Positions 5,222 to 12,339 of a stretch of 64,000 nt of DNA are shown here, in pieces (position 1 is the stretch's first letter; the number at the start of each line of letters is the position of its first letter). A program made the position numbers and the translations under genes. The notes under the pieces are model-generated. The model saw nothing but the letters and a program-made list of their open reading frames with translations. It was not told where the DNA came from and did not search any database. This stretch comes from Escherichia coli (GTDB lineage Bacteria > Pseudomonadota > Gammaproteobacteria > Enterobacterales > Enterobacteriaceae), in assembly GCF_036507355.1 (NCBI RefSeq), contig NZ_AP027877.1, one strand, 5' to 3'.

Positions 5222-5956
5222 ATGTCCAAACTCGATCTAAACGCCCTGAACGAACTGCCGAAGGTAGATCGCATTCTGGCGCTGGCGGAAACTAACGCCC
5301 AACTGGAAAAATTGGACGCTGAAGGCCGCGTAGCCTGGGCGCTGGATAATCTGCCCGGTGAATATGTGCTTTCTTCCAGCTTCGGCATTCAGGCGGCGGT
5401 GAGCCTGCATCTGGTGAATCAGATTCGCCCGGATATTCCAGTGATCCTCACCGATACCGGTTACTTGTTCCCGGAAACCTACCGCTTTATTGACGAGTTA
5501 ACGGACAAACTCAAGCTCAACCTGAAAGTGTACCGTGCTACCGAAAGCGCAGCCTGGCAGGAAGCACGCTACGGCAAACTGTGGGAGCAGGGCGTTGAAG
5601 GCATTGAAAAGTACAATGACATCAACAAAGTCGAACCGATGAACCGGGCGCTGAGAGATCTGAATGCGCAAACGTGGTTTGCTGGCCTGCGCCGCGAACA
5701 ATCCGGCAGCCGCGCCAATTTACCGGTGCTGGCAATTCAGCGTGGCGTATTTAAAGTGCTGCCGATTATCGACTGGGATAACCGAACGATATATCAGTAT
5801 CTGCAAAAACATGGCCTGAAATATCACCCATTATGGGACGAAGGATATTTATCGGTGGGCGATACCCATACAACCCGTAAATGGGAACCCGGCATGGCGG
5901 AAGAAGAAACGCGTTTCTTTGGCTTAAAAAGGGAATGTGGGTTACACGAAGGGTAA
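5222..5956 (+). CDS. cysH: phosphoadenosine phosphosulfate (PAPS) reductase
   Basis: ORF 5069..5956; start at internal [14 protein letters not shown] (244 aa); C-terminal ECGLH motif. Confidence 0.93.
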
Positions 5957-5973
5957 ATATTGCCGGATAAATT

Positions 5974-6012
5974 AAACGCCTCTGTCAGAAATGATGGGGG
6001 CGTTTTTATTTT
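5974..6012 (+). terminator. rho-independent terminator downstream of cysH
   Basis: Stem aacgcc/ggcgtt (with G-rich 3' arm) followed by tttttatttt. Confidence 0.6.
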
Positions 6013-6128
6013 GCGAGCAGCATTCCTGATTTTAAACGTGAACGCCGCTGGAAGAATTATCAGGTATAGAATGGCGTCGGGTGCTTGAGGCTGTCTGGCG
6101 TTAAGCATTCGCGAGGTTCCAGATGGAC

Positions 6129-6181
6129 AAAAGCCCCAGGCGATATTTCTATCAACCTGAGGCTCGCGTTCGAACGTAGCA
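6129..6181 (-). ncRNA. candidate Sok-like antisense RNA of the hok locus
   Basis: Minus strand: -35 TTGCCT (6216..6211), 17-bp spacer, -10 TAACAT (6193..6188), then about 55 nt ending in an 8-bp hairpin (gcctcagg/cctggggc) plus UUUU; antisense to the hok leader. Confidence 0.4.
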
Positions 6182-6219
6182 ATTCGGATGTTAGTCTCTT
6201 CTTTGCAGGGAGGCAAGAC

Positions 6220-6372
6220 ATGCTAACAAAATATGCCCTTGTGGCAATCATAGTACTGTGTTGTACAGTACTGGGATTCACGCTCATGGTAGGCGACTCG
6301 TTATGTGAGTTGAATATCAGAGAGCGTGGTATGGAGTTTAAGGCAGTTCTCGCTTACGAATCGAAGAAGTAG
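6220..6372 (+). CDS. Hok/Gef-family type I toxin (small membrane peptide)
   Basis: 50-aa product [50 protein letters not shown], closely resembling chromosomal Hok peptides (HokE-like as I recall it); SD gcagggagg upstream; leader begins with the hok-type motif ggtgcttgaggctgtctggc. Confidence 0.8.
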
Positions 6373-6737
6373 CCACCACGTGGGGGTAAAACCCCGCGTA
6401 TTGAATTGTGATGGTTTGGTCTCCTGCACCCTTTTTTAAATTTATATTTTTTATGTGAATATATTGTCTCTATTTATTATTATGAATTTCAAATGAAAAT
6501 CATAAATTTATTCACAATATAAATGTTTTATTGGCTGATATATATCACAGATAATTTTTAAAATATGCGTAAATATCCTTTAAGTTTACTGAAGGATAAA
6601 AATATTGTGACTTTCTTTGATTTCTGGGGAAAAACCCGACGCGACGAGAAAGAAGGGGGTGACGACTATCACCTTCTTTGCTGGCATTCGCTGGATGTGG
6701 CCGCGATGGGCTATTTAATGGTTAAAAGAAATTGCTT

Positions 6738-6746
6738 CGGGCTGGC
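6738..6746. repeat. IS1 target-site duplication, left copy (CGGGCTGGC)
   Basis: Identical 9-mer immediately flanks both IS1 ends. Confidence 0.85.
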
Positions 6747-6761
6747 GGTAATGACTCCAAC

Positions 6762-7265
6762 TTATTGATAGTGTTTTATGTTCAGATAATGCCCGATGAC
6801 TTTGTCATGCAGCTCCACCGATTTTGAGAACGACAGCGACTTCCGTCCCAGCCGTGCCAGGTGCTGCCTCAGATTCAGGTTATGCCGCTCAATTCGCTGC
6901 GTATATCGCTTGCTGATTACGTGCAGCTTTCCCTTCAGGCGGGATTCATACAGCGGCCAGCCATCCGTCATCCATATCACCACGTCAAAGGGTGACAGCA
7001 GGCTCATAAGACGCCCCAGCGTCGCCATCGTGCGTTCACCGAATACGTGCGCAACAACCGTCTTCCGGAGCCTGTCATACGCGTAAAACAGCCAGCGCTG
7101 GCGCGATTTAGCCCCGACATAGCCCCACTGTTCGTCCATTTCCGCGCAGACGATGACGTCACTGCCCGGCTGTATGCGCGAGGTTACCGACTGCGGCCTG
7201 AGTTTTTTAAGTGACGTAAAATCGTGTTGAGGCCAACGCCCATAATGCGGGCTGTTGCCCGGCAT
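6762..7265 (-). CDS. insB: IS1 transposase InsB (InsAB' C-terminal part)
   Basis: 167-aa [30 protein letters not shown] ... NIKHYQ. Confidence 0.9.
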
Positions 7266-7459
7266 CCAACGCCATTCATGGCCATATCAATGATTTTCTG
7301 GTGCGTACCGGGTTGAGAAGCGGTGTAAGTGAACTGCAGTTGCCATGTTTTACGGCAGTGAGAGCAGAGATAGCGCTGATGTCCGGCGGTGCTTTTGCCG
7401 TTACGCACCACCCCGTCAGTAGCTGAACAGGAGGGACAGCTGATAGAAACAGAAGCCAC
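7184..7459 (-). CDS. insA: IS1 InsA (transposition repressor / InsAB' N-terminal part)
   Basis: 91-aa [43 protein letters not shown]. Confidence 0.9.
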
Positions 7460-7514
7460 TGGAGCACCTCAAAAACACCATCATACACTAAATCAGTAAG
7501 TTGGCAGCATCACC

Positions 7515-7523
7515 CGGGCTGGC
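7515..7523. repeat. IS1 target-site duplication, right copy (CGGGCTGGC)
   Basis: Identical to 6738..6746. Confidence 0.85.
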
Positions 7524-9451
7524 TGATTATTTTCGTCAATTAGGGATTTCTGACAAGGAACAGGCGGCTCAATTTTTCGCCTGGTTGTTGTGCTGGCACG
7601 ATATTGGAAAATTTGCCCGCTCATTTCAGCAACTTTACCTGCACCCACAACTCAAGGTTCCGGAAGGCGCAAGAAAGAATTACGAAAAGATCTCTCATTC
7701 AACGCTGGGCTACTGGTTGTGGCATCATTATTTAAGTGAATGCGAAGAATTGCTTCCTGCCTCTTCACTCTCTACTCGCAAACTTAAACGTGTAATAGCG
7801 ATGTGGATGCCCATGACTACCGGGCATCATGGTCGGCCCCCTGACCGTATTGATGAACTGGATAATTTTCTGCCTGAAGACAAAGTTGCCGCGCGAGATT
7901 TTCTCCTTGAAATCAAGGCACTGTGTCCGCTCATAGAGATTCCCACATTCTGGGATAATGACGAGGGAGTTGAACTTTTAAAACAACTTTCCTGGTATAT
8001 CTCTGCAACAGTCGTACTTGCAGACTGGACGGGTTCGTCAACGCGATTTTTTCCACGCGTCGCACACCCAATGGATATTAAAGATTACTGGCAGAAAACT
8101 TTAGTTCAGGCTCAAAACGCCTTAACCGTCTTTCCTCCAAAAGCAGAAACCGCACCTTTCACCGGAATTAATACGCTGTTTCCTTTTATTGAGCACCCGA
8201 CACCATTACAGCAAAAGGTGCTGGATCTGGATATCAGCCAGCCAGGGCCACAGTTATTTATTCTGGAAGACGTGACTGGCGCAGGTAAAACAGAAGCGGC
8301 GCTTATCCTGGCGCACAGGTTGATGGCTGCGAGGAAAGCACAGGGTTTGTTTTTTGGCCTGCCAACAATGGCAACGGCCAATGCCATGTACGATCGGCTG
8401 GTCAAAACCTGGCTTGCTTTCTATTCGCCAGAGTCCCGCCCCAGCCTGGTGCTGGCACACAGTGCCCGCACATTAATGGACCGCTTTAATGAATCACTCT
8501 GGTCCGGTGATTTAGTCGGGTCAGAAGAACCGGATGAACAAGCGTTCAGTCAAGGATGTGCAGCCTGGTTTGCCGACAGTAACAAGAAGGCTTTACTGGC
8601 TGAAATTGGCGTCGGCACGCTGGATCAGGCGATGATGGCGGTGATGCCGTTCAAACATAATAATCTGCGGCTTCTGGGGCTGAGTAACAAAATCCTGCTG
8701 GCTGATGAGATCCACGCCTGTGACGCTTACATGTCATGCATTCTTGAAGGGCTGATCGAGCGGCAGGCGCGTGGTGGAAACAGCGTCATTTTGCTTTCTG
8801 CTACGTTATCCCAACAGCAGCGCGACAAACTCGTCGCCGCCTTTGCGCGTGGCACAGAGGGCCAGCAAGAAGCTCCGTTCCTTGAAAAGGATGATTACCC
8901 CTGGCTGACGCATGTCACGAAATCCGATGTGAACTCACACCGGGTAGCGACGCGCAAAGACGTTGAGCGTAGCGTCAGCGTGGGTTGGCTTCATAGTGAA
9001 CAAGAGAGTATTGCGCGTATCGAATCGGCGGTAAGTCAGGGAAAATGCATCGCCTGGATCCGCAATTCTGTCGATGACGCTATTAAGGTTCATCGTCAGC
9101 TGCTTGCCCGCGGCGTCATTCCCGCTTCCAGCCTTTCACTCTTTCATAGCCGCTTTGCTTTTAGCGATCGCCAGCGAATCGAAACGGAAACGCTGGCACG
9201 CTTTGGTAAAAATTGTAATTTAAAAAGATCATCGCAAGTCATTGTTTGTACACAAGTAATTGAGCAAAGTGTGGATATTGACCTGGACGAAATGATCTCC
9301 GACCTTGCCCCCATTGATTTGCTGATCCAGCGAGCGGGGCGATTACAGCGACATATCCGCGATATTAATGGTCAGTTAAAGCGTGACGGAAAAGACGAGC
9401 GTTCCCCTCCTGAATTGCTGATTCTGGCCCCCGTCTGGGACGACGCTCCTG

Positions 9452-9781
9452 GTGACGAATGGTTCGGCAGTGCCATGCGTACGCGCCTTTACAGAGGCCG
9501 CGCTTAAAGTCTCACCAACCGGAAAACAAAACAGCTTTGCCAGCCGTGCCTACGCCTCCTGGGCGCTGGCGGAAAAAGGCACTGTTCAACCGCGTTCTCT
9601 GGCGGCGGCTTTCTATGAACCCATTAATGGTACCCGTCAGTTAGATGTGGCGGTGCAGCGTATTACAACGCTTCGCGAAAACATGAATACGGTCTACGAA
9701 CAGAAGACTGAATGCGCAAGTTTTGACGTGATGAACAAACAGGGAAGCATGAAGGACGTACTGGACTTTATCTGCGCGTAA
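9452..9781 (+). other. cas gene remnant: either the 3' end of a Cascade gene (likely cas7e/casC) or a frameshifted Cas3 C-terminal segment
   Basis: 109-codon ORF in the +1 frame relative to cas3, overlapping its end by 55 nt; its stop lies 10 nt before the casD-like start with an intervening SD (aagggg), an operon-internal spacing. Confidence 0.35.
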
Positions 9782-9791
9782 GGGGCGGCTT

Positions 9792-9870
9792 ATGAGCCAA
9801 TATCTGATTTTTCAGCTTCATGGGCCAATGGCATCCTGGGGCGTCGATGCCCCCGGCGAAGTGCGTCATA
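9792..9870 (+). pseudogene. casD: casD (cas5e) 5' remnant, about 25 codons, fused out of frame to cas1
   Basis: N-terminus MSQYLIFQLHGPMASWG matches the Cas5e N-terminus as I remember it from E. coli (MRSYLILRLAGPMQAWG); similarity is lost where the Cas1 frame begins. Confidence 0.6.
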
Positions 9871-10973
<1,103 letters not shown>

Positions 10974-11069
10974 GTTATGTGTTCTTTAAAAATAAGGAAA
11001 TGTTTGAATTTAGTTGGTAGATTGTTGATGTGGAATAAATTTGTTTAAAAACAGATATGTATGCTTAGT
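10974..11069 (+). promoter_or_regulatory. CRISPR leader (AT-rich)
   Basis: About 95 bp of AT-rich sequence between the cas2 stop and the first repeat. Confidence 0.7.
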
Positions 11070-11281
11070 GTGTTCCCGGCGCCAGCGGGGATAAACCGAC
11101 GAGGGGCTCGTTATTCGGGAAATTACAAAAGTGTTCCCCGCGCCAGCGGGGATAAACCGGCCCAGGGATTTGTTCAATCCAGCGTGCCGCTGTGTTCCCC
11201 GCATCAGCGGGGATAAACCGGGCGCACTGGATGCGATGATGGATATCACTTAGAATTCCCCGCCCCTGCGGTAGAACTCCC
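11070..11281 (+). CRISPR. type I-E CRISPR array: 3 spacers of 32 nt, three 29-bp repeats and a degenerate terminal repeat
   Basis: Repeats GTGTTCCCGGCGCCAGCGGGGATAAACCG (11070..11098), GTGTTCCCCGCGCCAGCGGGGATAAACCG (11131..11159), GTGTTCCCCGCATCAGCGGGGATAAACCG (11192..11220), degenerate gaattccccgcccctgcggtagaactccc (11253..11281); spacers at 11099..11130, 11160..11191, 11221..11252. Confidence 0.9.
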
Positions 11282-11301
11282 AGCTCCCATTTTCAAACCC
11301 A

Positions 11302-12339
11302 TCAAGACGCCTTCGCCAACTCTTTCACCAGAGGTAGCATTATCCGCATAACGTCACGGCAGCGACGTTCTATTCTTCCAGGAAGTGCCTTATCAATATG
11401 CTGTTGATTATCCAGTCTTACGTCATGCCAGCTATTTCCCGCAGGGAATGCGGCTGTTTTTGCGCGTTGCTGATAACCATCCTTATTCCCAAGATTCCAG
11501 TTAGTCGCTTCCACCGAAAGTACAGCAATGCCCGCTTTGTCGAATATTTCTGCGTCATTACAACACCCAGTGCCTTTCGGATAATTTTTATTCAAACCCG
11601 GATTGGTCGTTGCGGCAATTCCATGACTACGCGCAATTGCCAGCGCCCTGTCGCGCGTTAATTTCCTTACTGCTTCAGGTGTTTTTACGCCACTGTTGAA
11701 ATACAGCTTATCGCCAACGATCAGATTATCGAGATTAATCACCAATAAAGTATTTTTCTTTTCGGTATCACTCATGCGCTTGAGGAAATTCTCAGCGCCT
11801 AATTTCCCTTCTTCTTCGCCACTGGTTGCTACAAAACGAATGCCATATTCGGTTGGCGTATTTTTCAGGCGTTCTGCCAGCTCCAGCATGACACCTAAAC
11901 CTGCGGCATTATCATCCATTCCTTGTAACGTCAGCCCGCCGAGATTGGCATCTGCATCTGCGTCGCTCTGCGGGGCATAGGTATCCAGATGCGCCATAAT
12001 AATGATCTGCTGCGGCGCTTTGCCTTCATGAGCGGCAATCACCGTACTTCCCGTCACGTTGTGCCAGTTTTTGCGGTTATCGCGGGCGGTATAAATATAT
12101 CGGCTATTAAACGTACGAATATCACTGCGGTAACCCATTTGCTGAAACTGTTGCCGAATATAATCGGCAGATAACATTTCTGCAGGAGTTCCGGTCATGC
12201 GTCCCGGAAAGAAAGTGGCAATATGTCGCGCCTGTGTATTGGCAAAATCGCCAGGTTTAGGTGACGAGGCGTGTACGGGGAGAATAAAGCATACGCCGAG
12301 CGCCAGGGCAGCGGTACGGTGGCGCAATGCGGAAAACAT
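11302..12339 (-). CDS. iap: alkaline phosphatase isozyme conversion aminopeptidase
   Basis: 345-aa ORF with signal peptide and M28-type aminopeptidase region; adjacent to the CRISPR array as in E. coli. Confidence 0.9.
   Translation of the reverse strand: MFSALRHRTAALALGVCFILPVHASSPKPGDFANTQARHIATFFPGRMTGTPAEMLSADYIRQQFQQMGYRSDIRTFNSRYIYTARDNRKNWHNVTGSTVIAAHEGKAPQQIIIMAHLDTYAPQSDADADANLGGLTLQGMDDNAAGLGVMLELAERLKNTPTEYGIRFVATSGEEEGKLGAENFLKRMSDTEKKNTLLVINLDNLIVGDKLYFNSGVKTPEAVRKLTRDRALAIARSHGIAATTNPGLNKNYPKGTGCCNDAEIFDKAGIAVLSVEATNWNLGNKDGYQQRAKTAAFPAGNSWHDVRLDNQQHIDKALPGRIERRCRDVMRIMLPLVKELAKAS

Follow-up and report, generated by a model that had tools for sequence, protein, structure and literature searches.

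The window analysed here, a stretch of 64,000 nucleotides whose position numbers are used throughout, is part of an Escherichia coli chromosome. Its gene order, read from the ORF list, an annotated reference locus and an Rfam sok match, is cysJ-cysI-cysH, hok/sok, cas genes, CRISPR array, iap and cysD-cysN. The cas operon is a damaged type I-E operon of the 'cas-E1' variant, to which hok/sok is linked according to Almendros et al. (2014, PMC3903273). Employing blastn, we aligned positions 5900-11400 of the window with an intact cas-E1 locus (L001, E. coli Res13-Sevr-PER07-33), and the junctions were viewed base by base. The damaged locus is laid out as follows.

5900-6746: end of cysH, hok/sok and first 182 nt of cas3; L001 674-1521
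6565-6746, + strand: 5' fragment of cas3, 182 nt; L001 1340-1521; matches the N-terminus of Cas3 HD
6747-7514, - strand: IS1, 768 bp, within cas3; the blastn alignment with L001 breaks here with a 9-nt overlap
7515-9481, + strand: body of cas3, to codon 713 of 899; L001 1513-3479, 1,967 nt ungapped, 95.7% identity
9452-9479, + strand: artefactual head of the 109-codon ORF; GTG and nine codons, cas3 DNA in the +1 frame
9480-9481: junction 1, TA microhomology; window 9481 = L001 3479, window 9480 = L001 7001
9480-9877: island of truncated cas7e, spacer and truncated cas5e; L001 7001-7398, 98.0% identity
9480-9781, + strand: 3' remnant of cas7e (casC), 302 nt; residues 252-351 and stop codon
9782-9791, + strand: native cas7e-cas5e spacer, 10 nt, AAGGGG
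9792-9877, + strand: 5' remnant of cas5e (casD), 86 nt; L001 7313-7398; TIGR01868 positions 1-38, E=1.7e-6
9876-9877: junction 2, GA microhomology; window 9877 = L001 7398, window 9876 = L001 8804
9876-11219: cas1e from nt 117, cas2e, leader and CRISPR; L001 8804-10148
9876-10683, + strand: cas1e without its first 39 codons; positions 36-268 of 269 of TIGR03638
10680-10973, + strand: cas2e, apparently intact, 97 aa; same length as cas2e of L001
11070-11220, + strand: CRISPR array, three repeats and two spacers; repeats match those of the L001 array

Based on profile searches, the cas3 body contains the HD and helicase domains of Cas3 but lacks the C-terminal domain, and its match to NF007248 (type I-E Cas3) ends at profile position 665 of 878. 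The cas5e stub had been called a casD remnant in the first-pass annotation, which the match to TIGR01868 bears out; its frame enters cas1 DNA out of frame and runs to a stop codon at 9996-9998, giving a 68-aa ORF (9792-9998). The cas1 remnant is read as a 287-aa ORF (9820-10683) from an ATG at 9820, starting in out-of-frame cas5e DNA. Pfam Cas_Cas2CT1978 is present in relatives, and the first and last repeats of the array are slightly degenerate. Between cysH and cas3 lies a hok/sok toxin-antitoxin, typical of the cas-E1 arrangement, with a match to Rfam sok (RF01794, 6079-6235, 105 bits) and a 50-aa Hok/Gef ORF (6220-6372).

Identity of the 109-codon reading frame

The program-made list of ORFs contains a frame of 109 aa with a GTG start at 9452-9781 (+). 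It is in phase 2 and the cas3 frame (ORF 7501-9507) in phase 1, which places it at +1 relative to cas3, as the first-pass annotation had it. The overlap of the two frames, given there as 55 nt, is real; its exact length (9452-9507) is 56 nt if the stop codon of the cas3 frame is counted and 53 nt if it is left out, so that the earlier count was near enough. The last nucleotide of the ORF's TAA is 9781, and the cas5e-like ATG follows at 9792; in the sequence, a Shine-Dalgarno-like run, AAGGGG, lies in the gap and overlaps the stop codon of the ORF. The 10-nt spacing (9782-9791) and the ribosome-binding site claimed earlier are therefore both there, and in the intact locus L001 the cas7e-cas5e gap is also 10 nt (7302/7313).

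The ORF matches the family profiles of Cas7e, and it does so in their last third: TIGR01869 (NCBIfam, Cas7/Cse4/CasC) with E=9.6e-21 at profile positions 248-325 of 325, and PF09344 (Pfam) with E=1.1e-14 at positions 244-333 of 361, 55.2 bits versus a cut-off of 26. When compared by BLASTP with an intact E. coli Cas7e of 351 aa (WP_001625774.1, locus L001), residues 10-109 of the ORF correspond to Cas7e residues 252-351 with 98 of 100 identical (E=1e-72), and residues 250-351 of Cse4 in the PDB entry 9uer (chain E) match the ORF with E=2.3e-51. The first-pass annotation had favoured a retained 3' end of cas7e, and these matches agree with it. Since the Cas7e models match, the open frame has a biological origin and is no chance occurrence. 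The score against TIGR01869, 75 bits versus a 178-bit cut-off, falls short of full-length Cas7e (about 351 aa), and the operon setting of Cas7e is lacking: casA, casB and cas6e are absent, and cas5e is reduced to its first 86 nt. The ORF is a fragment derived from the Cas7e family, not a functional member of it.

The beginning of the ORF is of another origin. In the nucleotide alignment with the intact locus, the window follows cas3 up to 9481 and cas7e from 9480 onwards. Upstream of the joint, the cas7e frame remains open through cas3 DNA back to a TGA at 9419-9421, and the GTG at 9452 is the earliest start codon between that TGA and the joint. Within the ORF, authentic cas7e DNA is confined to 9480-9781; positions 9452-9479, with the GTG, are out-of-frame cas3 DNA, which supplies codons 1-9, and codon 10 spans junction 1. 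The start codon and the first nine codons are thus not cas7e but a fortuitous extension of the frame, upstream of the joint, through cas3 DNA.

The remnant has changed little. Relative to L001, it carries seven synonymous third-position differences, all within 9485-9532, the 48 nt past junction 1, and these look like inherited allelic variation. The other 345 nt of the island at 9480-9877 show one difference, a D to V substitution at 9584 (codon 9584-9586), which is the single non-synonymous change; all intact alleles compared have aspartate or glutamate there. The substitution is compatible with relaxed constraint, as a single observation. Over the island, 98.0% is the highest identity reached by any complete E. 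coli genome, so that its parental allele is either unsampled or mosaic.

Two deletions and an IS1 insertion

Deletion 1 comprises 3,521 bp (L001 3480-7000) and took away the 3' 560 nt of cas3, the cas3-casA spacer, casA, casB and the 5' 754 nt of cas7e. It joined codon position 3 of cas3 to codon position 2 of cas7e; past the joint, the cas3 frame reads eight wrong codons (TRLYRGRA) and then meets a TAA at 9505-9507. Deletion 2 comprises 1,405 bp (L001 7399-8803), with loss of the remainder of cas5e, the whole of cas6e and 116 nt at the start of cas1e. Both junctions are out of frame. No IS sequence is found at junction 1 or junction 2, and for this reason, with TA and GA shared at the respective joints, both deletions look like microhomology-mediated illegitimate recombination.

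A 9-mer, GGTGACGAA, is common to cas3 (window 9451-9459) and cas7e (L001 6973-6981), about 21 nt upstream of junction 1, its two copies being one base out of register. As the crossover point it is ruled out, in that the window retains cas3 sequence to 9481. It may have aided the pairing of the two sites, or it may be a coincidence.

The third lesion is the insertion at 6747-7514, located 182 nt into cas3. The element has the features of the IS1 family: a length of about 768 bp, terminal inverted repeats, insA/insB (InsA- and InsB-like ORFs on the minus strand of 6747-7514) and a 9-bp target duplication, CGGGCTGGC, which flanks it at 6738-6746 and 7515-7523. Its ends read GGTAATGACTCCAACTTATTGATAGTG and ...CAGTAAGTTGGCAGCATCACC, which we take to be the IS1 terminal repeats. 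Another E. coli isolate (L008, NZ_LR536431.1) has an independent IS1 at about 1631-2400, likewise near the cas3 start. According to annotated feature ends, the two insertion sites are some 17 nt apart, and the elements are oppositely oriented; this part of cas3 may be a hot spot for insertion. A weak sigma-70-like match (TTGGCA, 18 nt, GATTAT; 9/12) is formed at window 7501-7530 by the right end of IS1 and cas3. It points into the downstream cas3 fragment, in a region where the count of such sites is not above that of shuffled sequence.

GenBank holds a protein identical to the 109-aa translation, BED21181.1 ('hypothetical protein VEE46_09490 [Escherichia coli]'), encoded on a contig of 4.64 Mb. 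Contigs encoding the 109-aa ORF or the 721-aa truncated Cas3 were found in several independent samples, GCA_905398585.1, GCA_016660925.1, ERR3330519, SRR31122001 and ERZ1310673. Both junctions, where the contigs reach them, are present at 99.9-100% identity in GCA_905398585.1, GCA_016660925.1, ERR3330519 and ERZ1310673; in SRR31122001 junction 1 is seen, and then the contig ends. In the carriers that cover the 5' end of cas3, this gene is unbroken, the 9-bp target is single-copy and IS1 is absent, as it is from loci L002, L003 and L014-L017. Since at least four samples have both deletions without IS1, the insertion of IS1 is the latest of the lesions.

For the order of the two deletions, one contig is of interest. 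L004 (ENA ERZ926208), a 574-bp metagenome contig corresponding to window 9357-9877 and beyond, contains junction 1 and has cas5e intact across the site of junction 2, which is suggestive of deletion 1 having preceded deletion 2. The positions at which it departs from the window are all on the right-hand side (9709, 9845, 9851, 9857 and 9860), and its cas5e allele is unlike all others compared. The invariant stretch between 9709 and 9845, at 135 nt, exceeds the k-mer length of 127 that the contig name implies; L004 either represents a genuine intermediate strain or is a chimeric assembly of a mixed sample. The evidence is suggestive only, because a chimera would fit the mismatches at the right end, and we do not accept L004 as proof that deletion 1 came first. 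A scan of JGI metagenomes with a 23-nt probe for junction 1 gave no hits and added no intermediates.

Coding capacity and predicted loss of function

Taken together, these data assign the ORF, at a probability of about 0.95, to a non-functional 3' remnant of cas7e that keeps its native frame and stop codon and was made by an out-of-frame deletion joining it to cas3. By this account, illegitimate recombination via TA removed the 3,521 bp and fused the cas7e tail out of frame to codon 713 of cas3, whose frame ends eight codons past junction 1. By chance the cas7e frame is open for 28 nt into cas3, and a GTG located there mimics the start of a 109-codon gene. The other deletion, of 1,405 bp via GA, fused what is left of cas5e to cas1, again out of frame, and IS1 split cas3 afterwards.

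Some facts speak against the remnant reading. The frame is intact with only one amino-acid change relative to the reference (D to V), and GenBank has the ORF as a called protein. Because of that intact frame and single change, loss of function is not proved by sequence decay alone. Other evidence concerns expression. In a scan of 7400-10100 for promoters and terminators, counts were not above those of shuffled sequence, and no sigma-70-like site was found upstream of the ORF on the + strand; nor does the sequence contain a Shine-Dalgarno motif before the GTG at 9452. In E. coli K-12, the cas3-casA spacer carries the promoter of the Cascade operon. No Cascade complex is possible in the window, since this spacer has been lost together with casA, casB and cas7e codons 1-251. 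We infer that both expression and function of the ORF are lacking. Given its overlap with the end of the cas3 frame, read-through transcription and low-level translation from the GTG would be possible.

Alternatively, the fragment might be a small stand-alone protein made of the Cas7e C-terminus, with a new regulatory or dominant-negative role and with GTG 9452 coupled to the truncated cas3. An intact frame with a start codon, an operon-style overlap with the upstream ORF and a sequence conserved in at least five samples would be in keeping with such a protein. However, the conservation extends at 99.9-100% nucleotide identity over the whole locus, and this near-identity among carriers indicates recent common descent rather than selection. 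The GTG, moreover, has neither a ribosome-binding site nor a promoter-like site nearby, the cas3 upstream of it is broken by IS1 in the window, and the one amino-acid change hits a position held by an acidic residue in every intact allele compared. The fragment is also without the first 251 of the 351 residues of Cas7e, and the independent tails found elsewhere measure 123, 288 and 552 nt, so that no particular length has been kept. We consider a new role of this kind very improbable. Equally slight is the chance that the island or its peptide has been retained for function, whether as a small protein coupled to Cas3 or as a cis element for transcription of the truncated cas1, cas2 and the CRISPR.

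The first-pass annotation had offered another possibility, namely that a frameshift mutation has moved the C-terminal domain of Cas3 into the +1 frame and that the ORF encodes this domain. Its location directly after the Cas3 helicase motifs, the 56-nt overlap with the cas3 frame and the loss of the C-terminal domain from the truncated Cas3 all suit this idea. Nevertheless, BLASTP of the ORF against the 199 C-terminal residues of intact Cas3 gave a best E of 5.9 over 16 residues, and the NCBIfam profile search returned no Cas3 hit, to the C-terminal domain or otherwise, for the 109-aa ORF. The DNA 3' of 9481 aligns to cas7e, not to cas3, and the protein itself matches Cas7e far better. BLASTP and the DNA alignment rule out a Cas3 identity, and the probability left to it is negligible. 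It is just as hard to credit that the junctions are assembly artefacts in a strain whose cas operon is truly intact. The absence of the configuration from all 5,426 complete RefSeq genomes of E. coli would suit that view, but several assemblies made independently, in different projects and with different assemblers (NCBI, Logan and ENA), contain both junctions with 100% identity.

With the ORF taken as a cas7e remnant, the entry for BED21181.1 ought to read cas7e pseudogene fragment instead of 'hypothetical protein'. The cas5e remnant (BED21182.1) is also named 'hypothetical protein', and public collections list the 287-aa cas1 fragment as a protein; the 68-aa and 287-aa ORFs are cas5e and cas1 pseudogene fragments with out-of-frame extensions. 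Despite its cas2 and two-spacer array, the strain should be scored as predicted to be incapable of CRISPR interference, and it is probably incapable of adaptation as well. The locus offers a clean, datable case of stepwise loss of type I-E in E. coli, by two microhomology deletions and then IS1, and the two junctions and the IS1 site are possible lineage markers. Beyond annotation correction and lineage marking, the importance of the finding is small.

Comparison with other eroded type I-E loci

In PMC3903273, the I-E locus of E. coli and Shigella is described as dispensable and eroded by IS elements and deletions, with 'a variety of intermediate situations'. The backbone of CRISPR-I (cas-E1) given there, namely cysH, hok/sok, cas-E1 genes, CRISPR2.1 and iap, is that of the window. 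The minor arrangements described there are associated with IS elements, whereas the two deletion junctions of the window are free of them, and the exact arrangement of the window is not among the arrangements in the text available.

Cas7e is also divided in other loci. A 100-aa protein (P0003, MRAFTEAALK..., 119 collection blocks) was considered as the product of the same junction and rejected; it comes from cas7e split in otherwise complete operons. In L009-L013, cas7e is divided into an ORF of 205 or 238 aa and a following one of 100 aa, in otherwise complete cas-E1 operons; directly 5' of the 100-aa tail, L013 has Mu-like genes (transposase, MuB-like ATPase, Gam, GemA and Mor). Independent internal cas deletions are present in further complete genomes of E. 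coli (hits H43-H49), from cas5e to cas1e and from cas3 to cas6e/cas1e.

Compared to intact Cas7e (WP_001625774.1; 9uer chain E), to which it is 98% identical over residues 252-351, the product of the window lacks the first 251 residues, and the Cascade partners that accompany intact Cas7e are missing: casA, casB, cas6e and most of cas5e. Closer parallels are found in three E. coli strains. In strain 41 (NZ_CP076285), a truncated cas3 is joined to a 552-nt cas7e tail, and strain WL164 (NZ_CP128642) has a tail of 123 nt, versus 302 nt in the window; in isolate VREC0864 (NZ_LR536431), IS1 is inserted in the 5' end of cas3 and a truncated casA is joined to a 288-nt cas7e tail. As in the window, each of these tails lies just 5' of cas5e, after a truncated cas3 or casA, and each is annotated by NCBI PGAP as a pseudogene, 'incomplete; missing N-terminus'. 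In these three strains cas5e, cas6e, cas1 and cas2 are intact, whereas in the window the second deletion hits cas5e, cas6e and cas1. Erosion of the effector genes is recurrent in E. coli, and the ORF at 9452-9781 is one more case of the already known decay of cas-E, an ordinary pseudogene fragment.
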